Counted from the first letter of the stretch, positions 7,211 to 36,017 are shown. The stretch: DNA of 64,000 nt from an uncultured Spirochaetales bacterium (GCA_964594055.1 CAZQKT010000001.1:11577-75576), one strand, 5' to 3'. Notes: generated from the letters alone by a model not told the origin. Program-made: numbers and translations.

Positions 7211-8176
7211 ATGAGAACTTATACAGGAGAACCGGCGGACAGCCCCGAAAAAAGGGATAAAGAAAAGACCGTTATTCGCTATTACGATCGGAATACGAAA
7301 CGTTTTCTCTCCCTCGGGCAGGGCGGTTCGGTCTCTGCCATTCACCGGGCGGTATGGGCGCCCGAAGTCACAAATAGAGAAGAGGGGATGCACTATGTGC
7401 ATGATCTCATAGTAAAAAACGCTCTACAGCTTCAGCCCGAGCTGGTCGTAGATTTAGGCTGTGGTATTGGAGGAAGCATGCTCTATCTCGCTTCCCGCTG
7501 CAAAGCCCGGTTTTACGGGGTAACTATCAGCAGGATACAGGCGGCCGCAGGTGCGCTTCTCATCCGGGAAAAGGAGATGGACAGGCGCGTTGTTATTGAA
7601 CAGAGAAGCTATCTCGATTCATCATTGTACAGTTTGCTGGAAAAAAAGCGGGGTAGCGGAGCTTGTCTTTTCTACGGGATCGAGTCGTTTCTCCATACTC
7701 CCTCTAGTGAGGAGTTGCTTGATCATCTCGGTGGGTTCTGTAGAGCAGGTGATGTATTGATTGTCTGCGATGATTTTTTATCGGTAGAATGGGGAGAAGG
7801 TCCGAGAGGGAAACCGAAAACCGGAGGGGAGAGGACTGTTTCTAGAAAAGCGGTCCGGATGGTCTCCCGGTTTAGAAGAAACTGGAAGGCCCACGGCTTG
7901 ATTTCCGCGAAACAATTGATTTTACTTGCCGGCAGGTACGGTTTTCAGCTCAAGGAAAACCGAAATCTTACCGGATTCCTGGAATTGGGTAGGGTCCGCG
8001 ACAAAATTATCCGTTTTGCGGTCTTTTTTTTGGTGGTCCTCCCGTTTCGTCCGTCCTGGTTGGAAAATATGATTGGAGGAGATGCGCTGCAGTATCTGCT
8101 CAAACGAGGGACTGTCGAATACCGCTATCTTGTGTTTAATAAAGCTCCTTCTCAAACCCATAGACACTCCTGCTGA
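7211..8176 (+). CDS. Class I SAM-dependent methyltransferase
   Basis: 321 aa with glycine-rich motif I (VVDLGCGIGGSMLYLA) and a downstream acidic loop (FYGVTIS) typical of the Rossmann-fold MTase. Confidence 0.6.
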   Translation: MRTYTGEPADSPEKRDKEKTVIRYYDRNTKRFLSLGQGGSVSAIHRAVWAPEVTNREEGMHYVHDLIVKNALQLQPELVVDLGCGIGGSMLYLASRCKARFYGVTISRIQAAAGALLIREKEMDRRVVIEQRSYLDSSLYSLLEKKRGSGACLFYGIESFLHTPSSEELLDHLGGFCRAGDVLIVCDDFLSVEWGEGPRGKPKTGGERTVSRKAVRMVSRFRRNWKAHGLISAKQLILLAGRYGFQLKENRNLTGFLELGRVRDKIIRFAVFFLVVLPFRPSWLENMIGGDALQYLLKRGTVEYRYLVFNKAPSQTHRHSC

Positions 8177-9788: not shown

Positions 9789-11221
9789 GATAGCAGCCGC
9801 GCGTAAATATCTCCTGAAGGGCCGTCCGCTTCCAAGGTTTTCAAGTGGTCAGAGAGTATTTCCTTGTTCACCCAGGTTTTCCAGTACAGTTCCATTGTTT
9901 CGACCATGGAGATATTAAACTCATACTTTCCGATTCGATCAAGTTCTTCCAGTGCTCTGAAGGCCACATCAATAGATGCGGGCAGAAATTCAAAAGAAAT
10001 GGCCTGTATTGTACAGGTAAGCCCTTGTAACACTTCTGCTTCAAACCCTTCTACATCGATTTTTATAAAAGTAGGAGTGCCGTACTGCTCGATAAGGCTG
10101 TCCAGCGTGGTCACAGGAACCGGTATCGATCGGGTCCAATCGATATGTTTAAAGGCCGGGGTCTTCTTTACCGTATCGATCCATGGTTTGGAGACAGTGG
10201 AAAGGGTTGGACTCGAATCACAGAGATACAGTTCGGTAGTCCCTTCGGTTTTACCTACTGCGGTATTGAGAACGTGAACTTCTTGTTTTTTTCCGTAAAA
10301 TCTCTGCAGAAGGTCATAACAGCGGGGAGAGGGCTCTGCCGCTACAACGGCAGCACCGAGGGAAAGCCACGGCCGTATTCTGTTTCCCAGATGCGAGCCG
10401 ATGTCGAAACAGAGACTGCCTGGTGATATAAACCGGCTGTAAAACTGTTTCATCTTCTTATAACGACCCGGTACTCCGTAGTAGATAAAAAAAGATTTTA
10501 AGAGGCCTGCTGTCCCCCTGCCTCGAATTGCTGTTTCCCATAAGAATGATCCCGTAAGGGCTGCAAGTGCAGTTCCTGCTGCTGCAGAGGCAAACCGGGT
10601 AACAGAGAACGGAGCAAAGAAAGCGATGAGCGAGCCTGCTGTAAAAACGCAGACCGTTTTCGCATAGATTGTAAAAGCTCTGCTGAAATGAAGCCGGGTA
10701 TCATCACTTTGAAATAGAGGAAGGAGAAACAGCAGGCCGAAAATGTATCGGATCAGACCTACAGCAAGTATCCATATTCCGGCATGGAGATACCTATTTA
10801 CTGTAAAAGCCAGCAAAAGAATAAAAAAAGCATCAGATTCGGCATCGAGAACTGAACCTCTATCCGTCGCACCCCGCCTGCGGGCGATCATACCGTCGAG
10901 GAGGTCGGTAAACTCCAGTGCGATAAGGCCGAAAAAGAGGAGATAACTCGAAGGAACGTAGCCAAGGAGTGATACTGCAAGAAGCACCGCGATTCCTCCG
11001 GCGGGCCTAAGCAGGGTTATCACGTCCGCTATTCTCGAAGGGGGCCCTAAAAACCAAAACAGGGATAAAAAACCGATACCGGAGATAGTGAGAAAAATAA
11101 TGGATGCATTAGGTGCAGCTTCAGGAGAAGCGAACAAAGAAACCCCGGCAGCTGCACAGGTAAGAGGGGCGTGCAGGAGGAGCCGGAGTGTCTGTTGCTT
11201 TTGCATCGAAACGGCGTTCAT
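9785..11221 (-). CDS. Fusion protein: N-terminal CDP-alcohol phosphatidyltransferase domain + C-terminal FkbM-family methyltransferase domain
   Basis: 478 aa. N-terminal multi-TM region with the CDP-OH phosphotransferase signature DLLDGMIARRRGATDRGSVLDAESDAF (D-x2-D-G-x2-A-R...G-x3-D-x3-D). C-terminal soluble domain with FkbM-type MTase motifs (CFDIGSHLGN...VVAAEPSP...FEFLPASID). Confidence 0.55.
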   Translation of the reverse strand: MNAVSMQKQQTLRLLLHAPLTCAAAGVSLFASPEAAPNASIIFLTISGIGFLSLFWFLGPPSRIADVITLLRPAGGIAVLLAVSLLGYVPSSYLLFFGLIALEFTDLLDGMIARRRGATDRGSVLDAESDAFFILLLAFTVNRYLHAGIWILAVGLIRYIFGLLFLLPLFQSDDTRLHFSRAFTIYAKTVCVFTAGSLIAFFAPFSVTRFASAAAGTALAALTGSFLWETAIRGRGTAGLLKSFFIYYGVPGRYKKMKQFYSRFISPGSLCFDIGSHLGNRIRPWLSLGAAVVAAEPSPRCYDLLQRFYGKKQEVHVLNTAVGKTEGTTELYLCDSSPTLSTVSKPWIDTVKKTPAFKHIDWTRSIPVPVTTLDSLIEQYGTPTFIKIDVEGFEAEVLQGLTCTIQAISFEFLPASIDVAFRALEELDRIGKYEFNISMVETMELYWKTWVNKEILSDHLKTLEADGPSGDIYARLLS

Positions 11222-24966: not shown

Positions 24967-26028
24967 TTATCGAGTCCGTTCGAGACTGTATGTAAGAAGG
25001 TCCATCAATAAACCTCGAGCTTCTTCATTCCGGCATGCAAGCATTTTTATCCGCTCACGCACTTCTTCGGCAATGGTTTTCACTGTAGTTTCCACTTTCT
25101 CTTTTATTCCGAGCCGGTCGATTCGTTTTTGAATAAACTCGATATCCTCCGTGGTGATATCCTTGTTGCCGAACAGGGAGAGAAGATGCTGTTTTTCCTC
25201 CCCTTCACCACTGTTTATAAGATAATGATAGTAGAGTGTTTTTTTCCCTTCGCGGATATCCGAGCCTATTGGTTTTCCTACCGTTTCCTTCCCGCCGAAC
25301 ATCCCCAGTTCATCATCCTTGATTTGAAACAATATTCCCAGCTGTGTTCCAATACTCTCGAGGGATGAAATCGTTTCATCGTTTTCTCCTGCAGACATCG
25401 CCCCGGCCATAAGAGGAAGAGAAAACGTATAGCGGGCCGTTTTATACGTATACAGGTGGATAATCTCGTCGACAGACCGAACTTTGCTGTCCGACCCCCA
25501 CAGAACATCTACCATTTGGGCCACCCCTACAAGAGTCAACTCTCTGCTGCAGAGTGTAAGCAGGCGGATTATACTCTGGTTTGGAAGGTTGTTTTTTGAT
25601 AGAATTTCAAAGGCCAAGAAGTAGGCGATATCGCCGGCGCAAATCCCTAACGCTTCTCCCGTGTGGACAGGGTCGGAAAGTTTTTCTTGATCGGCAAATG
25701 AGATATACTCGGCATATATCGATGGAGAACCTCTTCTGTGCTTGTCACGGTCCATGATGTCGTCATGGATGAGAAGTGCGGATTGAAATAATTCTTGCAC
25801 CGCACCGAGCGGGGTCGTGATATCTTCATTCGGAGAAGAGTATAGTTCGTACCCGAGGCAGACGAGAGCTCCTCTGATCATTTTACCCTTCAATGTAAAC
25901 GAGAGGAGTTTACTGCTTAAGCTCTCTCCTATCGGATGGATTGACTGCAGAGTAGGACCGTAACTGCTGATAAAATCATTGAGGTATCTGCTTATGCGTT
26001 CTTTTTTTTCCGCGATATACGATTTCAT
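24967..26028 (-). CDS. Polyprenyl diphosphate synthase (GGPP/FPP synthase family)
   Basis: 353 aa. FARM (LIHDDIMDRDKHRRG) and SARM (FQIKDDELGMFG) aspartate-rich motifs. Confidence 0.8.
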   Translation of the reverse strand: MKSYIAEKKERISRYLNDFISSYGPTLQSIHPIGESLSSKLLSFTLKGKMIRGALVCLGYELYSSPNEDITTPLGAVQELFQSALLIHDDIMDRDKHRRGSPSIYAEYISFADQEKLSDPVHTGEALGICAGDIAYFLAFEILSKNNLPNQSIIRLLTLCSRELTLVGVAQMVDVLWGSDSKVRSVDEIIHLYTYKTARYTFSLPLMAGAMSAGENDETISSLESIGTQLGILFQIKDDELGMFGGKETVGKPIGSDIREGKKTLYYHYLINSGEGEEKQHLLSLFGNKDITTEDIEFIQKRIDRLGIKEKVETTVKTIAEEVRERIKMLACRNEEARGLLMDLLTYSLERTR

Positions 26029-26044: not shown

Positions 26045-26587
26045 TTATAAGGTCACGGAGAAACTGATGCGTTTTGGATGTTTGGTTTTGAAATTGTCAC
26101 TTCGGTCCGGACCATAGGCGACGAGAATAACATGTTCCCGCCCTTTCTCGAGTTTTGTATCGTAAGAATCCCCGGAATCAAGCGGAATTGTAAATGTTAT
26201 CTCCGTACCGGAACTGTCTTCTTTTCCGGTATATTCGATAATATCGTTTGTCCCGCCTAACTCCGTATCAGGTCTATGCGAGAAAGCACCATCACCGAAA
26301 TGATCTTCGATAAAAAGTTCTCCCCCTTCAACATATCCGATAATGAAATTGGCATCTTTCATGGCATTAGAGGGATCGAAACCGACCCCAATCCATCCTT
26401 GTGTCGGTGCGTGTACAATAAACTCGGCATTGCCGCCCGATATCTTCCATTTGAACATGACACCTGCAGTCTCAACCGTTGTATACCCTTCACTGTCAAC
26501 AACGGGCTCTGCTTCTACTGAACCACCGGCAAAACTGAGACCGGCTACAATTGCGGCTAACATGAGAACACATAAAGCTTTCTTCAT
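26045..26587 (-). CDS. Secreted hypothetical protein (DOMON/CBM9-like beta-sandwich?)
   Basis: 180 aa with a signal peptide (MKKALCVLMLAAIVAGLSFAGG). G/D-rich beta-strand pattern; fold assignment is speculative. Confidence 0.3.
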   Translation of the reverse strand: MKKALCVLMLAAIVAGLSFAGGSVEAEPVVDSEGYTTVETAGVMFKWKISGGNAEFIVHAPTQGWIGVGFDPSNAMKDANFIIGYVEGGELFIEDHFGDGAFSHRPDTELGGTNDIIEYTGKEDSSGTEITFTIPLDSGDSYDTKLEKGREHVILVAYGPDRSDNFKTKHPKRISFSVTL

Positions 26588-26660: not shown

Positions 26661-27650
26661 TCATGATTTCGGCAGAAGCATTCTGTAGAGTTTTTTCCTT
26701 TCAAACTCGCCGGCGTACAAAAAGTAGTCTGCAATTCCTGGAGGTACATGCGGCAGCACCGTTTCTGTGAGGTAAAAGTTGCCGGGTTTGGCAAACCGCT
26801 TTCCTAAATGATAGAGAGAGTTTACGGTATCGGAAATGACTGTTCCAGTATCACCCCGCTTTCTATATACCGTGTTCCCGATATCGAGAACGATGCGGTA
26901 GGACAGCAGGATATCATGTGGAAACTCCTCTGTGCTTATAATGGTCCTGTTGAGGATTATTTTAAAACATTCCAGAATTGGATCGCACGTGTGTCCATCG
27001 AACGGGAAAAGTACCAGGCCGCCGAATTGGTCCCAAATCCAGATGTTTCCATTCATCGGCGAAACCCGTCGTTCGATGAAATTGTGAAAATCTGTACCAA
27101 CTTTATCGAGGTGATATTTACCGGATTTCTTTTCCCAATCAGCGTGCAGATCCAGTTCGGTAAACATAAAGCAGAACGTATATTCTTTGCCCGGTTTTAT
27201 AGTTTTCCAATCTTTTCCCGAATAGATAGTAGGAGTATCTTTTTCCGCAACCTCTGTACCAACAATTTTGTGTGTATCTGCATATTTGAGAATCTGTTTT
27301 ATCCGTTTTGAAGGGATTCCTTTTTTGAGAATCGTTTGGCCGATATAATCTATTGCTCCTGCATGAAAAAGTGCGGCCGGGTCATTGATGATTCCGTTTT
27401 TATCAATAATCCCAATGCGTGAACTGTCTTGCTTCGCTAGAAAACGGACGAGCTTTGTTTGGTCGCGCCATCCGGGAGCTGAAATGTCGAGATAGTAAAT
27501 GGTGTCACTATTTTGTTTTTTTACGGCATCTTTCAGTTCGGAAACCGGTTTTACGGAAAAATCAAAATTGCGGGCCCTGCCGAGCGAATCAAACTTTTTT
27601 ATGACCGTATCGTTATCGGAATAAAGAATTATTGTCATACCGGCTCCCAT
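26661..27650 (-). CDS. Class III nucleotidyl-cyclase homologue, C2-like (degenerate metal site, conserved DTVN transition-state motif)
   Basis: 329 aa. C-terminal half: FCFMFTELDLHAD...GNIWIWDQFGGLVLFPF...YRIVLDIGNTVY...SDTVNSLYHLGKRF. The first-half Asp motif is degenerate but the 'GDTVN' motif is intact. The N-terminal ~150 aa is an unknown (REC-like?) domain. Overlaps the upstream gene by 16 nt. Confidence 0.45.
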   Translation of the reverse strand: MGAGMTIILYSDNDTVIKKFDSLGRARNFDFSVKPVSELKDAVKKQNSDTIYYLDISAPGWRDQTKLVRFLAKQDSSRIGIIDKNGIINDPAALFHAGAIDYIGQTILKKGIPSKRIKQILKYADTHKIVGTEVAEKDTPTIYSGKDWKTIKPGKEYTFCFMFTELDLHADWEKKSGKYHLDKVGTDFHNFIERRVSPMNGNIWIWDQFGGLVLFPFDGHTCDPILECFKIILNRTIISTEEFPHDILLSYRIVLDIGNTVYRKRGDTGTVISDTVNSLYHLGKRFAKPGNFYLTETVLPHVPPGIADYFLYAGEFERKKLYRMLLPKS

Positions 27651-28561
27651 TCCAATTCATACGCGTAAAGTTTTCTGTCCCCTTTACTGTTGATCGGCAA
27701 AAACTTGTTCGATACGATTTCATCGAGCATAACTTTTATTACCGGGCTGATGGTAATCGAATTCATTTTTGTCTGGGTAGATTCTATTTCCAATATACGT
27801 TTGATTGTATCACTTTTTGACAGTTCCTCTTCCTTTTCCGTGTATTCGAAGGAGCCGGAATGGACCGCAATACGGACTTTGAGAGGAGACTTGAGTTTAT
27901 TGTCAATACAATTGTATAAAAAGATGGAATGGATAATCTCCATTGCCGCCAATGTGGCGAGCAGATGCCTGTTGGAGAAGAAAAAAGCTGCCAAGCCCCC
28001 ATCACCTTCCCACGACCATATTCTTCCGTTACGCTTCACTGTAGAATTCTGAACGATGGTGCGCAAATCATCATACGCTTTTTTGACTTCTGTGGGAGAG
28101 TGCTGCCGGACCAAAGAGGTATTGCCTGCAATATCAACACGCAGAAACGCTATTGTGTACTCATCCCCCTTCTGAAGAGCGCCCCAATTTCTGGTCTGCC
28201 GATACCGTGAGTTTTCGACAAACATCTCATTCTCTTTGTCGTAAACAAATCCGAGTTCATAGACGCCGCGGATAATGTTGTTCAGATACGATATCGGATA
28301 TTTCCTCCCCATATGTCCGCTTTCCTGAATTTCGATCAGATAACTTACCAAATTGGGAAAAAGTCCACTTACTGATGCATCGGTGACGATCTGGTTTGCG
28401 ACCTCGAGGTTCGGAATTGCAATACTTGTCGGATAACCGGTCCTCTCGTATATATCATAATCGGGGATCAGCTTTTTTGCGATCATGCACATGGTGTGTG
28501 GGTCCATCGATTCCGCTAATGCTTTTGCACATTGGTTTAGTAAACTATTGGCAATCCGCAT
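27635..28561 (-). CDS. Class III nucleotidyl-cyclase homologue, C1-like (conserved metal-binding Asp motifs)
   Basis: 308 aa. AFLRVDIAGNTSLVRQHSPTEVKKAYDDL...KRNGRIWSWEGDGGLAAFFF...LKVRIAVHSGSF fits the F-x-D-I-x-G-F-T...K-x-x-GD-x-x-A-x-F...R-I-G-I-H-x-G pattern of adenylyl/guanylyl cyclase catalytic domains. The downstream 'DTVN..R' is degenerate (SDTIKRILEIE). Start ATG overlaps the stop of the upstream gene (TAATG). Confidence 0.5.
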   Translation of the reverse strand: MRIANSLLNQCAKALAESMDPHTMCMIAKKLIPDYDIYERTGYPTSIAIPNLEVANQIVTDASVSGLFPNLVSYLIEIQESGHMGRKYPISYLNNIIRGVYELGFVYDKENEMFVENSRYRQTRNWGALQKGDEYTIAFLRVDIAGNTSLVRQHSPTEVKKAYDDLRTIVQNSTVKRNGRIWSWEGDGGLAAFFFSNRHLLATLAAMEIIHSIFLYNCIDNKLKSPLKVRIAVHSGSFEYTEKEEELSKSDTIKRILEIESTQTKMNSITISPVIKVMLDEIVSNKFLPINSKGDRKLYAYELEWEPV

Positions 28562-30459
28562 TAAAAATCCTTTAAAAGCCCGTATTTCATTCTCAAAAGT
28601 TCGAAGAGGGAGGATTGTGTGAATATACCTGCTTCATTTTCTGTAGTAGTACAAGTACGCAGAATATCCGGTAGTAATGCTGCAGTCTTTTCTCTGTCGT
28701 GCAGGAGCACCACCCCACCTGTCGACTTCTCTATCGATTTTTCAATTTTATTGAGGATTGTCAACTCGTCAAGTCTTTTCGCACTCTGCATGCGGTAATC
28801 AAAACTGTCTATTTGGAAAATTATCATTTCCATTCCCAGCTCTCGGACTGCTTGATCTACCTTTTCATTGCGGCCCGCTTCCGCATAGGGAGGACGGAAA
28901 TAGCGCATCGGATAATGATACCCGAGCAATGCATCCAACGCCGTTTGGGTACGGATTATTTCTTCTTTTATCTCTTCTATATCATGTTCCCCGTCGTTAT
29001 AGTCCCCTCCGGAAAGATTATGGTGACTGTAGGAATGGTTGGCTATACTGTGGTCCTCTCTAATCATCCTGTCCATTACTCTCTCGGCAAGAAGTAAAGG
29101 ACGACCATGCTCATCCAGTAGGTTTTTCCCATTTATAAAAAAAGTTGCCGTAATATGCAGCGGTTTGAGAATATCGAGTATTCTTTCGGTAACTGTTATG
29201 TTCTCTTCTTCATCGATGACCGCGAGGTTCGGCCCGTCATCAAAAGTAAGATGAATTTTATTGCCGAAGTTCACAGTACTGTCTTCGAAATAGTAGATGC
29301 CCATCCCCTCTAGTACGGCGCTCTTTCCCTGATAAGAAGCTACTAAGTTCAGGCCGTTCTCGACCGAGACTGGTCCACCGTGCGTTGAAGCAATCGGTTG
29401 AGCACGTGCTTTCTCGAGTTCGACAGTTGCATCAAAAGAAAGGGCTGATCGGTTTTTCGTTTTGTCCTCTTTAGGATAAAAGACCGGTGATGTTTCCCCG
29501 ACGATTACCAGGAGGAGGACAGGTATGAGCACGAGTTGGAATGCTGTTTTCCATCCGACGGATGACACAATAGTGGCGAGACTGGTAATCTTTTCTGTAA
29601 AGCGGCTTAGAATGTCTGCAAGTGTTCGAATGGACCTGCTCACGGCAGCGGCAGTGCGGCGGGTGGTCTGCAGGAAGGTTTTATACCACTTGTACACATC
29701 TACTGCCGGCAACGAGAACACGCGATAAGAGAGACGGAAGTCCAGTGCCTGGAACTGCCCGTACCACATGCCTTGTTGCTCTTCGCCCCGCGCTAAAAGT
29801 TTTGTGGTTACGGCCTTCAGTAGTTTATTTGTTGTAAATAGAGTCGAGCCGGAAACTTTCGTGCCGTTTTTCCTGTTCGACTGCACTCTTTTATAGAGGA
29901 GGGTCTCTCTTAAAACGCGCAGATCACCCGCCCCGGACTCGAGAAGCTCCGCTGCTCTCTCACCTATGAGCAGCTGCCAAACCGTACAATCAATACAGTC
30001 GAACAAGTATCTCTTTACCGAGTTCTCGAGTTCTCTGCTGTCTTCTTCTCCGCGGAGTGATATATACAGTTTGTTGAATACCACGTCCGCTACGATCCGC
30101 GGAGGAAAAAAAATTTCGTTTCTCAAGGAGGCAGGTAATACAATTTCTATCGGATCGGTCTCTCTGTTTTGATGCCTGCCGGAAGAAGGAAAGGGGAGGT
30201 GTGAAGTAGAGGCGGCCTGCAGTGCTGCCTCGAGTGCCGAAAAAAACGGTGAAAAATCATCGTTTTTCCCTGCAATACTTTTTTGTGTATTGTAGGCGAG
30301 CGTTTGCAAAAGGGTCTCGATGCTCAGTTTACAGGCTTTGAGAGTTTTAAAACGGCTATGTTTTTCACGCGTAAAAAAATAGAGAATATTCCTCTCGTAG
30401 TGACCCACAGTATAATTATGCGAAAATTGCACGTTCCATGCAACACTGTTTTTATACAT
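28561..30459 (-). CDS. Membrane protein: unknown ~290-aa cytoplasmic domain + 1 TM + extracytoplasmic polysaccharide deacetylase (NodB/CE4) domain
   Basis: 632 aa. TM at FQLVLIPVLLLVIVG; NodB motifs LTFDDGPN (motif 1) and ANHSYSHHNL (motif 2), plus a downstream RPPYAEAG. First gene of a three-gene minus-strand operon. Confidence 0.55.
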   Translation of the reverse strand: MYKNSVAWNVQFSHNYTVGHYERNILYFFTREKHSRFKTLKACKLSIETLLQTLAYNTQKSIAGKNDDFSPFFSALEAALQAASTSHLPFPSSGRHQNRETDPIEIVLPASLRNEIFFPPRIVADVVFNKLYISLRGEEDSRELENSVKRYLFDCIDCTVWQLLIGERAAELLESGAGDLRVLRETLLYKRVQSNRKNGTKVSGSTLFTTNKLLKAVTTKLLARGEEQQGMWYGQFQALDFRLSYRVFSLPAVDVYKWYKTFLQTTRRTAAAVSRSIRTLADILSRFTEKITSLATIVSSVGWKTAFQLVLIPVLLLVIVGETSPVFYPKEDKTKNRSALSFDATVELEKARAQPIASTHGGPVSVENGLNLVASYQGKSAVLEGMGIYYFEDSTVNFGNKIHLTFDDGPNLAVIDEEENITVTERILDILKPLHITATFFINGKNLLDEHGRPLLLAERVMDRMIREDHSIANHSYSHHNLSGGDYNDGEHDIEEIKEEIIRTQTALDALLGYHYPMRYFRPPYAEAGRNEKVDQAVRELGMEMIIFQIDSFDYRMQSAKRLDELTILNKIEKSIEKSTGGVVLLHDREKTAALLPDILRTCTTTENEAGIFTQSSLFELLRMKYGLLKDF

Positions 30460-30513: not shown

Positions 30514-32583
30514 ATGAATAAAGGTAATTTATTACAGTATGAAAAGAGTCCGTATCTGCTCCAGCATGCCGAAAATCCGGTCCACTGGAAACCGTGGGGT
30601 GATGCGGCATTTGAGCAGGCGAAACATGAGGATAAGCCGATATTTCTCTCTATCGGGTATTCTACATGCCACTGGTGTCATGTAATGGAGAAAGAATCTT
30701 TTGAGGATGAACACGCGGCGTCCCTGCTGAATGGGACATTTGTGTGTATAAAAGTCGATCGGGAAGAGAGGCCCGATATTGACAGTGTATATATGGATGT
30801 TGTTCAGGCCTTGACCGGGACAGGAGGTTGGCCTCTCACTGTCGTTATGACTCCTGAAAAAAAGCCGTTTTTTGCCGCTACATATATTCCGAGAGAAGAT
30901 ACGTATGGAAGAGTCGGGTTGCTCAATCTCATTCCCCGGATCAGCCAGGTGTGGAACAATGAAAGGGAAAGAGTAGATGAATCGGCCGAATCAATTGTGA
31001 ACCAGCTCGTTGCTAATGAGACCAGAGATTTCTCGGATAGGTTCCCGGGCAATGATGTGCCGGATAAGGCTTTTGTTGCTTTAAAGAGTAATTACGATGA
31101 AAAACATGGGGGATTCAATGAAGCTCCAAAGTTCCCTTCTCCCCACAACCTTCTGTTTCTGCTCCGTTACTGGAAGCGTACCGGAAATGAAGAGAGTCTG
31201 AACATGGTGCTTCACACTCTCACTGCAATGCGGCGGGGCGGTATGTTCGATCAGATAGGATTCGGATTTCACCGGTATTCAACCGATCGATTCTGGCTTG
31301 TTCCTCATTTCGAAAAAATGCTCTACGATCAAGCTCTTTTGGCAATGACCTACTTCGAAGCGTATGAAGCAACCGGAAACGGTCTGTTTGCACAAACCGG
31401 AAGGGAAATATGTGCCTATGTGGCTGAAAAACTTACCGACAAACAGGGAGGCTTCTATTCCGCCGAAGATGCGGATAGTGAGGGGGTAGAAGGGAAGTAC
31501 TACGTATGGAGCTGGAAAGAGTTGGAAAATGCACTCGAACCGGAAGAGATGGATTTTTTAAAGGAATATGTGACCGTTTCCCGGGAAGGAAATTTTCATG
31601 AGCCGGCAATCAAAGAAGAAGGGGCCAACGTTTTCTCACGTAAAAGACCGATTGATACAAATACAGAAAAAAACCAGTGGGAGAAGGTCCGGAAAAAATT
31701 GGAGCGCCTACGGTCAACCCGTTCTGCTCCTTTCAAGGACGATAAAATACTTACAGACTGGAACGGATTGATGATTATGGCATTTGCTGCAGGCTATAGA
31801 CTGCTTGGCGATCCGCGTTTCCGGGAGCGGGCCGAACAGGCGGCACAGTTCGTGCTCTCCAATATGAGAGAGGGCGAAGATGATCTTCTGCACATGTATC
31901 GGGACGGGACCGCTATGGTGGAGGCGAAACTGGACGATTACGCCTTTTTCGGTTTGGGTTGTGTTCGGTTGTTCGAAGCAACGTTTAATCCGTTCTACCT
32001 CGAGTGGGCGGTAACACTTGCCGAGAAAGCGCTCCGGCTTTTTTGGGACACTGCCCGGGGAGGATTCTATCTTACTGACCGCACAAATGATGAACTGTTT
32101 CTAAAAGAAAAACCGCACTTGGATATGGCTATTCCTTCCGGTAACTCGGTAATGTACGATCTGTTCACCCGGTTAGGACGTCTAACCGGTAATCAGGAGT
32201 ATGAGCAGACCGGAGAAGAGATCGGGAAAAGCTTATCAAAACAGATAACGAGTGTACCGTACGCGCATACTTATTTTCTCGCAGGAATAGAGGCGAACAG
32301 AGGCCGGCGGAGAGAAGTCGTTGTAGTAGGGAAGCCTCAGGACGAGCAGACGAAGAAAATACTCGACTTTCTCAACCACACCTATCTGCCGGGACAGATC
32401 GTGCTGGTAAAAAGTCCGGATGGAGCTTCGAACGGCGAACAGAACATTTCATCTCTTGTTCCACATATAGCGCAGTATGGGATGATCGATAATAAAACAA
32501 CGGTGTACGTCTGTGAGAACTTCGCCTGCAAGAAACCGGTAACTGAGCTTGAAAGTGTGAAAGAGCTCATAATTCGGCGGTAA
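30514..32583 (+). CDS. Thioredoxin-domain protein YyaL family (DUF255 + (alpha/alpha)6 barrel)
   Basis: 689 aa. N-terminal [52 protein letters not shown] (CxxC thioredoxin-like), then a glycoside-hydrolase-like six-hairpin domain. Confidence 0.8.
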
Positions 32584-32899
32584 GAATGAGAGGAAGGCTT
32601 GTCGCTTCGAGCGGGGATGCATCGAAACCGCCGAAATAGGTTATCGAAGGAAAACCGGCTTCTACCACATAACGGTGCATTTTCATTTTTGCCGCGGAAA
32701 TCATCTCGGCATCAGAATCAATGCCTGTAACCGCGTGTCCTTTTTCGGATAGGGCAAGGGCGAGATTGCCGGTTGCACATCCGATATCGAGAAGGTTCCG
32801 GGGTGGAGGAGGGAGCCGTTTTGTTATAAAATTTATTTGTTTTGCACTAAAAGGGAAGATCCGGTCGTAATAGTCAGATATGCTTGCATAAAAACCCAT
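32567..32899 (-). pseudogene. Truncated SAM-dependent methyltransferase (N-terminal ~110 aa only)
   Basis: Motif I (LLDIGCATGNLALALSEKGHAVTGIDSDAEM) and motif II region are present, then the ORF terminates. The remainder is absent in any frame, and its 3' end overlaps the convergent yyaL gene. Confidence 0.35.
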
Positions 32900-33441: not shown

Positions 33442-34584
33442 TTATTGTCGGCTTCTTAATACAAGAAGGGAAAAAAGAGCACCGTTTTTTTCGATACTAT
33501 ATTTTGCAGCATGGAATTTTTTCAGTTCGTCATCTTTGATTCTGAGCTTAACAGGGCGGTCGTCCACATCTTCCCCGTTGTTCAACAAAGCAAGAAACAG
33601 GTTCATATCTTCGATTTTTTTCCAATTGACGAACCGGATTGCGGATTGATCGATGAGTTCTTCCCGTGTAAATCCGCTCGCTTCGACAAACGCATCATTT
33701 ACTTCCACAATGTTCCAATCGTGAAACTGGATGAGTAAAGCACTATACACATTGTTTTCGATGTCTTGCCGGAGCGATTCGGGAATGACGTCGATGTGAT
33801 TGGAAGGTCCGGAGGGTTTTTCATGTAATTCGGTAACCGTGAAAATGCAGCCTTGAAAATCCCCATTGCTCCCCCGGTATAATTTAGGAGAAACCAATAC
33901 TCGCGCGGCGGTAAGCTCTTTTCTGCTGAGATCAAGTTCAAAAGAACGCTCTCCAACGATAGTTTGGTCCTGCCACAGTTTGGACACGGTTTCCACATTG
34001 GATTGGTCGAGAAGTACTCTTACATCTTGATTGTATATCTCCTCTTGTGTGTACCCGGTTATCTCCAAAAAGTGTTCATTTGCAAAACTGATCTTCCAGT
34101 TGTTATCAACAACGAGTAATCCATTTCTCATTTCCTGAACGATTTTTCTCAGCCGTTTTTCGCTCTCTTTGAGTTCTTTTTCCATTTGGTATTTATAGAA
34201 CGCTATTTCGATGTTGCTTCGCAGCTCTCGGTCGGTAAAAGGTTTTAATACATAGCCGTACGGTTCGGTCAATTTTGCCCTCTGTAACGTCGGCTCATCA
34301 GCGTAAGCAGTGAGGTAGACGATGGGCAGATCGTATTTGTCCCCTATTGAATGAGCGGTTTCTATGCCGTCTACATTTCCCTCCAGTTTTATATCCATAA
34401 GAATGAGGCCCGGATGCAAGCTTTCGATGCTCTCCAAAGCTTCTCCGCCGCTTGCGCAGACATCTGTTACCGTATACCCCATTTTTTCCAGTTTCCGCTG
34501 CAGACTTTCTGCAACAATTGCTTCGTCTTCTACGATAAGAATTGTATCTTTTAGGTTTTGTTTAACGCTATTGTGTACGAGCAT
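33442..34584 (-). CDS. Response regulator with REC domain followed by two PAS-like domains (no obvious output domain)
   Basis: 380 aa. REC: ILIVEDEAIVAESL...LILMDIKLEGNVDGIETA...KPF; PAS-like segments follow (ITGYTQEEIYNQD..., ASGFTREELIDQS...). Confidence 0.7.
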   Translation of the reverse strand: MLVHNSVKQNLKDTILIVEDEAIVAESLQRKLEKMGYTVTDVCASGGEALESIESLHPGLILMDIKLEGNVDGIETAHSIGDKYDLPIVYLTAYADEPTLQRAKLTEPYGYVLKPFTDRELRSNIEIAFYKYQMEKELKESEKRLRKIVQEMRNGLLVVDNNWKISFANEHFLEITGYTQEEIYNQDVRVLLDQSNVETVSKLWQDQTIVGERSFELDLSRKELTAARVLVSPKLYRGSNGDFQGCIFTVTELHEKPSGPSNHIDVIPESLRQDIENNVYSALLIQFHDWNIVEVNDAFVEASGFTREELIDQSAIRFVNWKKIEDMNLFLALLNNGEDVDDRPVKLRIKDDELKKFHAAKYSIEKNGALFSLLVLRSRQ

Positions 34585-34586
34585 TG

Positions 34587-36017
34587 TTATACTCTCCCTC
34601 TGAAGGTCTTCACCAATTCAACCCTGTTTCTTACATTCAATTTTCTGTAGATGCTGCTTAAGTGTTTTTTAACGGTGATTTCCGCTACATTGATTTTGTC
34701 GGCAATTTCTTTGTTCTGCAGTCCTTCCATCAAGTGCTGAATAATCTCAAACTCTCGATTTGTGATCACACCTTCATCATTACCCTTGTTTTTCGGTAAG
34801 TTCTTATGGGGTTTTTCGAGTATTTGGAAAAAGCCGGACCTCTGCAGCTGTTGCTGAGATAAGTTCACCCCGCTGAGCACTTTCGGGGTAGTGAGACCGC
34901 CCGCCGTATCTTCTCCTTTTTTGGAAGAAGTAGGGTTTCCCCTATCCGGTTTACTTTCAGTTTTACTTTGTCTGACAGATATGCAGGAGCGTGAAAGGTC
35001 CCGCGAAGCTGCTATGTAGCCTGCAACCGAACCTTCTATAACGACGGGAGTAAAAAGCGTATCCACCTCTTTTGAGTAGGCAGTACTGACAGGTACAAGG
35101 TGATTGATGCGAAACGGCATACCCACCGGCCCGTTTGTTTCAGCAAGAGAAGAAAACACATTTGCCGTATCCGCGTCAAAAACCGCATGGATTGTTTTAT
35201 CGATCACAGCCGAGGGGGCAAACCCTAGATTCTGTTCTGCCGTCGGACTTACATATTTAATTACATTTTTATTGTTGAGAATCCAGATAACATCGTTGTT
35301 TACCTCGAGAAACCGGGGAGCAGGGGACAGTGATGGATACCATGTGGTGTATTCGCTGTAGGTGGCTATTCGTTCTTGATGCGCTTTTTTATTTCGTCTG
35401 TAGAAGTGTGAGAACAGGACTGTTTTAAGCACTTCATCCAATTCGCGCGCTTTAAAAGTACCGTGATTTTGACCGTTATCGTTCTGTTCGAACACGAGTG
35501 AGTCCGAAATAATGGTTTTTGTATGGAGTTCACTGATCTCCTGTACCCAGTCCGGAGAAAAGGTTTCATAAAAATAAACACATATGCCTGAGGCGGGCAT
35601 GCCGGCATATATGTGGTCTAATGTTTTTTCAAATTGAAGCAACTGCTCTTTTTCCAGGACATGCCCGGCTAAAACAGTCATATCTATGATAACATTCAAT
35701 TGTTTAAACCCGGTTTCTTCCGTTTTTTTAATTTCCCGTTCAATTAATCGAAACAGATCGTCCATATCCGGTGATTTTTCCCAAAGGTATTCCTCTATCG
35801 GGACATTGGTAAGATAATCGGGGAGTACTGCAGGATCGAGGTAGTCTAGTAGATAGTCGAGCATAGTAGAGGAGCGGCTGTCGATAAAGGTCAACAGCCG
35901 ATTTTTATTCTCTAAACTCCTCGTAATGTAATCCGAAAGGATCAGGGCCCGCTCGAATCGGGAAGCATAGATAAGAAGAATATGCTCCCTTTGTTCGTGC
36001 GTTTCAGAAACGTGCAT
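34587..36017 (-). CDS. LuxR-family transcriptional regulator with N-terminal MEDS-like and PAS domains
   Basis: 476 aa. C-terminal LuxR HTH (REFEIIQHLMEGLQNKEIADKINVAEITVKKHLSSIYRKLNVRNRVELV). The N-terminal ~190 aa resembles the MEDS (DcmR-type) sensory domain; the middle region is PAS-like. Confidence 0.6.
   Translation of the reverse strand: MHVSETHEQREHILLIYASRFERALILSDYITRSLENKNRLLTFIDSRSSTMLDYLLDYLDPAVLPDYLTNVPIEEYLWEKSPDMDDLFRLIEREIKKTEETGFKQLNVIIDMTVLAGHVLEKEQLLQFEKTLDHIYAGMPASGICVYFYETFSPDWVQEISELHTKTIISDSLVFEQNDNGQNHGTFKARELDEVLKTVLFSHFYRRNKKAHQERIATYSEYTTWYPSLSPAPRFLEVNNDVIWILNNKNVIKYVSPTAEQNLGFAPSAVIDKTIHAVFDADTANVFSSLAETNGPVGMPFRINHLVPVSTAYSKEVDTLFTPVVIEGSVAGYIAASRDLSRSCISVRQSKTESKPDRGNPTSSKKGEDTAGGLTTPKVLSGVNLSQQQLQRSGFFQILEKPHKNLPKNKGNDEGVITNREFEIIQHLMEGLQNKEIADKINVAEITVKKHLSSIYRKLNVRNRVELVKTFRGRV

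Follow-up and report, generated by a model that had tools for sequence, protein, structure and literature searches.

A membrane-anchored CE4 deacetylase gene stands head-to-tail with a Spirochaetota-wide pair of class III cyclase-homology genes

Introduction

When a polysaccharide deacetylase gene runs without a gap into two cyclase-type genes, does the gene order describe a signaling pathway or two neighbors that have little to do with each other? The question is raised by three genes, here called A, B, and C, in a 64,000-nucleotide stretch of DNA from an uncultured Spirochaetales bacterium (GCA_964594055.1, CAZQKT010000001.1:11577-75576). We refer to this whole stretch as the window and count positions from its first letter. 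A preliminary description of the locus had cast protein A as a membrane input: its carbohydrate esterase family 4 (CE4) domain would act on or sense a glycan, and its N-terminal domain would signal to cyclic-nucleotide synthesis by B and C. Our analysis favors a different answer, to which we assign a probability of about 0.7: A and an autonomous, heterodimeric-type B-C module are two unrelated units that came to lie head-to-tail in this lineage, the adjacency is recent, and there is no conserved coupling between them. In the first unit, A would be anchored in the inner membrane with a CE4 metallo-deacetylase domain toward the periplasm and a second domain inside the cytoplasm. In the second unit, the paralogous cyclase-homology proteins B and C would pair as an obligate heterodimer that takes its input from a receiver-like domain on C. 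The link from deacetylation to cyclic nucleotides is then probably a local accident of gene order and should not be propagated.

Results and Discussion

The window contains A, B, and C as three contiguous open reading frames (ORFs) that run in the same direction on the minus strand. Gene A (28561..30459) encodes 632 residues with an N-terminal domain of no assigned family, one transmembrane (TM) helix, and a CE4 (NodB-type) deacetylase domain. Gene B (27635..28561) encodes 308 residues with a helical N-terminal domain (approximately residues 1-125) followed by a class III cyclase-homology domain. Gene C (26661..27650, 329 residues as listed) combines a receiver-like N-terminal domain with a second cyclase-homology domain. 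The stop codon of A and the start codon of B share one nucleotide (TAATG). The listed start of C at 27650 (MGAGM...) is followed by a second methionine at 27638, residue 5 of the listed ORF, and most relatives of C begin at the latter position. Position 27638 is probably the real start, which would place the listed one four codons too early and shorten the product to 325 residues; with this start, the stop codon of B and the start codon of C overlap as ATGA. Since stop and start codons overlap at these junctions, the three genes are probably cotranscribed and translationally coupled, both in this genome and in a sister genome described below. The close packing of a deacetylase gene with two cyclase-type genes, as first reported, is therefore real.

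Linkage of A to B-C

We confirmed B relatives in 388 GTDB species genomes and in at least 464 metagenome stretches. The species genomes, which include Leptospira, Sediminispirochaeta, and Marispirochaeta, are labeled Spirochaetota with essentially no exception. We inspected the neighborhoods of the best 80 loci of each collection, genome and metagenome (160 fetched). On contigs that are long enough, the gene right after B is in essentially every case C; for the metagenome set, 67 of 71 loci show this at the identity cutoff used. About 150 fetched Spirochaetota loci carry the B-C pair at identities of ~45-67%. The other neighbors vary, and in 38 of 74 loci the gene before B is encoded on the opposite strand. 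Recurrent neighbors are lineage-specific housekeeping genes: nuclease/helicase-like, PyrK-like, methyl-accepting chemotaxis protein, kinase, sugar kinase, and CarB genes. Judged by these sequence comparisons, B-C appears to be an autonomous, vertically inherited two-gene signaling module across Spirochaetota.

Because B matches the PADLOC models for PycC (best E 3.6e-7), the pair could also be read as an anti-phage cyclase system of the Pycsar type. The match covers only the class III cyclase core that such proteins share, no conserved TM or TIR effector stands beside the pair, and the neighbors are housekeeping genes. A pair found at about 150 fetched loci throughout the phylum at the identities given above has the distribution of a vertically inherited core pair, not that of a patchy defense island. 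We rejected this candidate, which we regard as very remote, on account of the missing effector and the core distribution of B-C.

An A-type gene precedes B in one genome other than that of the window, a sister metagenome-assembled genome (MAG; contigs L001 and L004) in which B is 94%, C 83%, and A ~64-68% identical to the window proteins. None of the approximately 150 other B-C loci has an A-type gene. A CE4 hidden Markov model was also run on six-frame translations of the B-C flanks, which comprised 1.19 Mb from genome loci and 0.84 Mb from metagenome loci. Among these ~2.0 Mb, the only CE4 genes were the sister A and one at a locus designated L048; none is adjacent to the pair in the 80 metagenome loci. 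Ahead of the three closest relatives of B we found SIS and PfkB genes (L089, B 67% identical), noncoding sequence in which every forward frame is closed by stop codons shortly before B (L088, 65%), and a divergent gene (L087, 61%).

The A family itself is tiny. Among billions of proteins we found approximately seven, all of which combine the N-terminal domain, the TM helix, and the CE4 domain. An exhaustive phmmer search of 1.84 billion representatives with the N-terminal domain of A returned only P0205, P0206, and P0003, again with this layout. The cytoplasmic domain of A thus appears to be restricted to a very small family and always to travel with this CE4 subfamily. The relative in the sister genome, P0002, is 548 residues long and starts at an internal methionine. 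On its contig (L001, ~7640-7690), a masked run of N crosses the 5′ end of the A gene, and homology to the window A reaches upstream to at least residue 21.

The genes for the other relatives stand in diverse surroundings. P0003 (L002) is preceded directly by a methyltransferase gene that has a relative near A in the window and is followed by convergent genes; since L002 keeps this methyltransferase-A neighborhood, P0003 looks like the positional orthologue of A. The P0205 gene (L084/L085) has a RecQ-type helicase gene on one side and a convergent NeuB gene on the other. An ABC-2 permease gene and a further convergent gene flank the P0206 gene (L086). P0005 (L003), a CE4-only match with marginal similarity in the N-terminal domain, is encoded between citrate synthase and EF-G genes. 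B-C is absent near the A relatives at L002, L084/L085, L086, and L003, and lies downstream of A only in the sister genome. Two of the B-C loci without A mentioned above come from two samples, JGI 3300038954 and SRR28370467, that also contain an A relative on another contig: L089 from the sample of P0003 and L088 from that of P0206. The paired contigs have similar GC content and tetranucleotide correlations of 0.70 and 0.72. These cases would fit a lack of linkage between A and B-C in the organisms concerned, without proving it.

Several points weigh against our explanation, in which A and a heterodimeric-type B-C module are unrelated units, or limit it. The overlap of the A stop with the B start is kept in two genomes despite the low identity of their A proteins, so that selection may maintain the A-B linkage. 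In addition, the L048 locus is an independent genome with a TM-anchored CE4 protein encoded upstream of B, and this is the only other CE4 gene in the genome-locus flanks. The gene (L048 9043-9942, plus strand; B at 10001) codes for a 299-residue, TM-anchored generic CE4 protein and ends 58 nucleotides upstream of B-C on the same strand. L048 belongs to a distant, high-GC Spirochaetota MAG, the B of which is only 47% identical to the window protein. With ~14 genes per locus, we roughly estimate the chance that a CE4 gene within ±10 kb falls into the co-oriented slot directly before B at ~0.04-0.07. The short L048 gene is unrelated to A, and we take it as only a weak hint of a link. Furthermore, the neighborhoods inspected are those of the best-matching loci, and the putative assignment of the same-sample contigs to one organism rests on their similar GC content and the two correlations. 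Finally, the substrate-specifying residues of B and C, described below, are noncanonical, so that the product cannot be named and cyclase activity itself is only predicted.

The first two of these points, extended to the B-C overlap that the sister genome also keeps, are what speaks for the input model of the preliminary description, together with the fact that the N-terminal domains of both A and B are without a known role. The model has to accommodate that every A-family member outside the sister genome lacks B-C nearby, that A is missing from about 150 other B-C loci, and that the 80 metagenome loci lack an adjacent CE4 gene. The CE4 protein at L048 has a short N-terminal tail before its anchor, and hence no cytoplasmic signaling domain. 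Unrelated genes, such as the PyrK-like gene of cluster c12, also precede B-C tightly at other loci, and C already carries a receiver-like input domain of its own. We therefore consider the input model improbable. The proposed transmembrane link between deacetylation and cyclic-nucleotide synthesis finds no support in these data, and the co-occurrence of the three genes in other genomes ends with the sister genome, the L048 hint apart.

A narrower version would confine the connection to this lineage. That A was functionally recruited to B-C here strikes us as unlikely. We hold equally low expectations for its most explicit form, in which A became the envelope-facing input to a previously undescribed, spirochaete-wide, obligately heterodimeric class III cyclase, composed of a metal subunit, B, and a receiver-like subunit, C, that contributes the Asn and His, and in which periplasmic glycan deacetylation would be reported to a cyclic-nucleotide signal through the cytoplasmic domain of A.

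Combinations of this general kind exist. The exopolysaccharide operons pgaABCD, pel, and ica join a CE4 deacetylase with cyclic-dinucleotide control; they contain a synthase glycosyltransferase and receptors for cyclic di-GMP (c-di-GMP). A-B-C resembles them in that a polysaccharide deacetylase is encoded alongside proteins of nucleotide second-messenger type. In contrast to these operons, the A-B-C unit has no synthase; the enzymes it encodes are homologous to class III cyclases, and A shows no conserved linkage to B-C. Our literature searches found no description of a deacetylase-cyclase operon.

Protein A

The C-terminal part of A is a CE4 domain by homology (Pfam PF01522, Polysacc_deac_1; residues 400-545, E 4e-26, 91.7 bits against a cutoff of 23.1). 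The catalytic domain spans residues 386-632 (28564..29304, minus strand) with all five motifs intact. In an alignment of five family sequences, the motif residues are invariant: D407 and D408 of TFDDGP, H475 and H479 of HSYSH, R522, P523, and P524 of RPPY, D551, D554, and Y555 of DxxDY, and L585 and H587 of LxH. The closest solved relatives are the peptidoglycan N-acetylglucosamine (GlcNAc) deacetylases 5o6y, 4l1g, and 2c1g (E 1e-13 to 6e-12), followed by chitin deacetylases and PdaC, and the alignment to 5o6y spans the CE4 motifs. The NCBIfam models for NodB, PdaA, and PgdA match A far below their equivalog cutoffs, so that specific orthology cannot be assigned. By these matches, A is most likely a de-N-acetylase of the peptidoglycan or chitin type.

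A Kyte-Doolittle scan finds one hydrophobic segment in A (approximately residues 297-329), which contains the single predicted TM helix (residues ~303-325; 29485..29553, minus strand). Lys and Arg residues flanking this segment are more numerous on the N-terminal side in four of seven family proteins, equal within one in the other three, and never clearly fewer; the net charge is greater on the N-terminal flank in all seven. By the positive-inside rule, this bias would place the first ~300 residues of A in the cytoplasm and the CE4 domain outside. We infer an N-in/C-out topology with an extracytoplasmic CE4 domain.

The N-terminal domain (residues 1-300; 29560..30459, minus strand), predicted to be cytoplasmic, belongs to no recognizable family and has a conserved core at approximately residues 100-200. 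It has no match in Pfam, NCBIfam, PADLOC, or the Protein Data Bank (PDB), and a profile built from six such domains returned nothing credible from the PDB or Pfam. An AlphaFold2 (AF2) model of residues 1-320, computed from a four-sequence alignment, is unreliable and too poor for a fold search (predicted local distance difference test, pLDDT, 39.9). Profile-profile comparison of the domain with the B and C families gave no relation (probabilities <1%). The anatomy given in the preliminary description, an N-terminal domain without a family, one TM helix, and a NodB-type CE4 domain, agrees with the Pfam match, the motif alignment, and the charge bias that suggests the topology.

Like A, the CE4 peptidoglycan GlcNAc deacetylases (SpPgdA, 2c1g; Bc1960 and Bc1974 from Bacillus cereus, 4l1g and 5o6y; PdaC, 6h8l) have a NodB domain with five catalytic motifs. 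In PdaC and PgdA, an N-terminal anchor places this domain outside the cytoplasmic membrane, as is predicted for A. Unlike the solved enzymes, to which its identity is low, A adds a cytoplasmic domain of ~300 residues before the anchor; its activity and substrate are predictions from sequence. A small CE4 family with a conserved cytoplasmic domain that has no relatives hints at an enzyme that modifies the wall in the periplasm and is controlled or scaffolded from the cytoplasmic side.

Proteins B and C

B matches the Pfam cyclase family PF00211 below its gathering cutoff (17.2 versus 21.9 bits, E 0.004). Compared with solved structures, the B family profile recovers class III cyclases, first 3mr7 (E 1.2e-5) and Ma1120 (9e-4), then Rv1900c and a cytidylate cyclase. 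These matches identify B as a class III cyclase-homology protein. C has no Pfam match. Its family aligns with the B family across the C-terminal ~196 columns with an hhalign probability of 99% (E 4.8e-18), by which C is a paralogue of B. An AF2 model of C (pLDDT 80.9) leads Foldseek to the cyclase domains of RhoGC, Ma1120, and Cya2, with matches to 6aob, 4wp9, 2w01, and 1ybt at target TM-scores of ~0.6-0.78. The full-length model also finds the receiver (REC)-GGDEF proteins WspR and PleD over both domains.

The fetched loci supplied 143 distinct sequences of B and 120 of C, in which we counted active-site residues with equivalences taken from a HMMER alignment of B to 3mr7 and Ma1120 and from a B-C profile alignment. 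Both metal-binding aspartates of class III cyclases, D143 and D187, are present in 143 of 143 B sequences. The position of the transition-state Asn is K254 in B (Asn in 2/143) and that of the transition-state Arg is E258 (Arg in 7/143). B therefore keeps the two metal ligands without the Asn and Arg that homodimeric bacterial enzymes have in the same chain. The pattern in C is the complement. The first metal position is E165 (Glu in 113/120, Asp in one), and the second is F209 or another aromatic residue (Asp in 3/120). The transition-state Asn, N277, is invariant (120/120), and the Arg position is always His (H281, 120/120).

This complementarity, together with the strict adjacency of the two genes, predicts that B and C depend on each other as an obligate heterodimer and build a single active site between them. 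B would be the C1-like partner that supplies two metal-binding Asp, and C the C2-like partner that supplies the transition-state Asn plus an invariant His. Paralogous domains are known to divide the active-site residues between them in the C1/C2 pseudo-heterodimer of mammalian adenylyl cyclase and in the alpha/beta heterodimer of soluble guanylyl cyclase (sGC). In this comparison, B resembles C1 and alpha (metal Asp) and C resembles C2 and beta (Asn), which implies one functional site per dimer. Unlike those enzymes, B and C are two separate bacterial genes with an invariant His at the Arg position and noncanonical specificity residues, and their N-terminal domains are a receiver-like fold in C and an unassigned helical domain in B.

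The residue pairs that usually specify the purine, Lys/Asp for ATP and Glu/Cys for GTP, are absent in B and C. Neither protein has a Lys at the site four residues ahead of its second metal position, and the position seven before N277 is Thr, Asn, or Glu. Without the usual purine-specifying residues, the product is not predictable. Such features invite the reading that B and C are cyclase-fold pseudoenzymes or nucleotidyl-transfer enzymes of another sort, and that they form a regulatory heterodimer that makes no cyclic nucleotide. The subthreshold PF00211 score of B and the absence of this match in C fit that reading, as do the His at the Arg position and the Glu at the first metal position of C. 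Against it, the metal Asp of B and the Asn and His of C do not vary among 143 and 120 distinct sequences, respectively, which speaks for an active site under selection, and the profile and fold matches are active class III cyclases. We regard the noncyclase reading as unlikely, and favor a composite cyclase site.

A split class III active site has been described for animal adenylyl and guanylyl cyclases, and bacterial enzymes have been described as homodimers (PMC9552081). According to this review, bacterial class III cyclases homodimerize, and a fused dimer is unknown in bacteria. Literature searches for bacterial class III cyclases that are heterodimeric or linked to a receiver in spirochaetes turned up neither such enzymes nor this pair. 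If the prediction is correct, B-C would allow asymmetric catalysis and regulation of cyclases to be modeled in a simple bacterial system, and it would be a second-messenger enzyme not studied before, in a phylum with pathogenic members.

The N-terminal domain of C has a (beta-alpha)5 topology in the AF2 model, with strands E5-10, E29-34, E50-55, E78-82, and E99-103 alternating with helices. D55 aligns with the acceptor Asp of NtrC1 and is found in 115 of 120 sequences, which makes it the putative site of any phosphorylation; the receiver match from sequence alone is weak (E 0.14). The acidic Mg pocket of receivers is missing, with Ser or Thr at position 11 and Asp at position 12 in only 64/120. 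Position 83, the Thr/Ser site of receivers, is Asp in 119/120, and the receiver Lys (Lys105) is present in 71/120 and replaced by Gln in the window. The domain may be a pseudo-receiver, and it is the likely regulatory input of B-C.

Receiver domains that precede nucleotide cyclases are familiar from REC-GGDEF proteins such as WspR, PleD, and DgcR, which, like C, place a (beta-alpha)5 receiver-like domain before a palm-type nucleotide cyclase fold. REC-containing class III cyclases also exist, such as the cyanobacterial CyaC. C differs from these REC output enzymes in the missing acidic Mg pocket, the Asp at the Thr/Ser site (D83), and the incomplete conservation of the Lys, and no histidine kinase is conserved beside the pair.

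Flanking genes and base composition

Downstream of C, the minus strand continues with two genes. The first, 73 nucleotides after C, codes for a secreted DOMON-domain protein (26045..26587; Pfam PF03351, E 5e-18), and is a possible further member of the A-B-C operon. A polyprenyl synthetase gene follows after another 16 nucleotides (24967..26028; Pfam PF00348, E 9e-52) and is possibly the last gene of the transcription unit; the order from DOMON to polyprenyl synthetase is also found in the sister genome. Upstream of A, separated by a 54-nucleotide spacer, a divergent yyaL-type gene (DUF255, thioredoxin-like; Pfam PF03190, E 4e-75) occupies 30514..32583 on the plus strand.

DOMON genes occur near B-C in at least nine other loci (L035, L040, L055, L060, L062, L104, L122, L129, and L131). 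The gene lies downstream of B-C in the window and the sister genome, and upstream in Sediminispirochaeta-type loci, often with a gene for a membrane protein of ~230 residues. The recurrence may reflect function or old synteny. A yyaL-type gene stands directly downstream of B-C on the same strand in the metagenome lineages L125 (12044-13366) and L138 (12094-14235). Its position there, compared with its divergent orientation from A in the window, suggests that a local rearrangement made the A-B junction. Since yyaL and DOMON genes recur beside B-C elsewhere, the surroundings in the window read as an old B-C synteny to which A was juxtaposed, and not as an accessory island.

Base composition leads to a similar picture. 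The GC contents of A, B, and C (0.460, 0.439, and 0.429) compare with a mean of 0.481 (standard deviation 0.032) for 57 genes of the window. The earlier remark that the operon is AT-richer than its neighbors is numerically correct, but the genes are no outliers: their z-scores of -0.7 to -1.6 against the window genes are similar to those of regulator genes at 33-38 kb. GC content gives no evidence for a foreign origin of A-B-C. The suggestion of an accessory module did not hold, as the B-C pair is phylum-wide, yyaL and DOMON genes accompany it elsewhere, and GC is in the local range. For the last two reasons, we also rejected horizontal transfer of an accessory island.

A consensus scan for promoters and terminators gave fewer matches than in shuffled sequence and is uninformative. 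It found no terminator-like site at the A, B, and C junctions, at a level of matches that is itself below that of the shuffled control. One sigma-70-like hexamer pair, TTGACG-16-TAAAAT (28745..28772, minus strand), lies within the 3′ end of A, ~185 nucleotides ahead of B, and is a candidate for an internal promoter; the scan lends no weight to its function. A stretch like TTGACG...TATTTTAAT is also present at ~95-130 of L088, just upstream of a B gene that no other gene abuts; this is a consensus match only.

Two further features lie beyond the yyaL-type gene. At 33442-36017 on the minus strand, ~3 kb from the operon, there are genes for a MEDS+GerE (LuxR-type) protein and for a response regulator of REC+PAS type. 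Both show synteny with the sister genome and are candidate regulators. The methyltransferase gene referred to above is an S-adenosylmethionine methyltransferase-like ORF of 110 residues (32567-32899, minus strand). Both of its ends match the ends of a 243-residue gene product in the sister genome (L001 4765-5496), which points to an in-frame internal deletion of ~125 codons in the window copy. This ORF may be a remnant.

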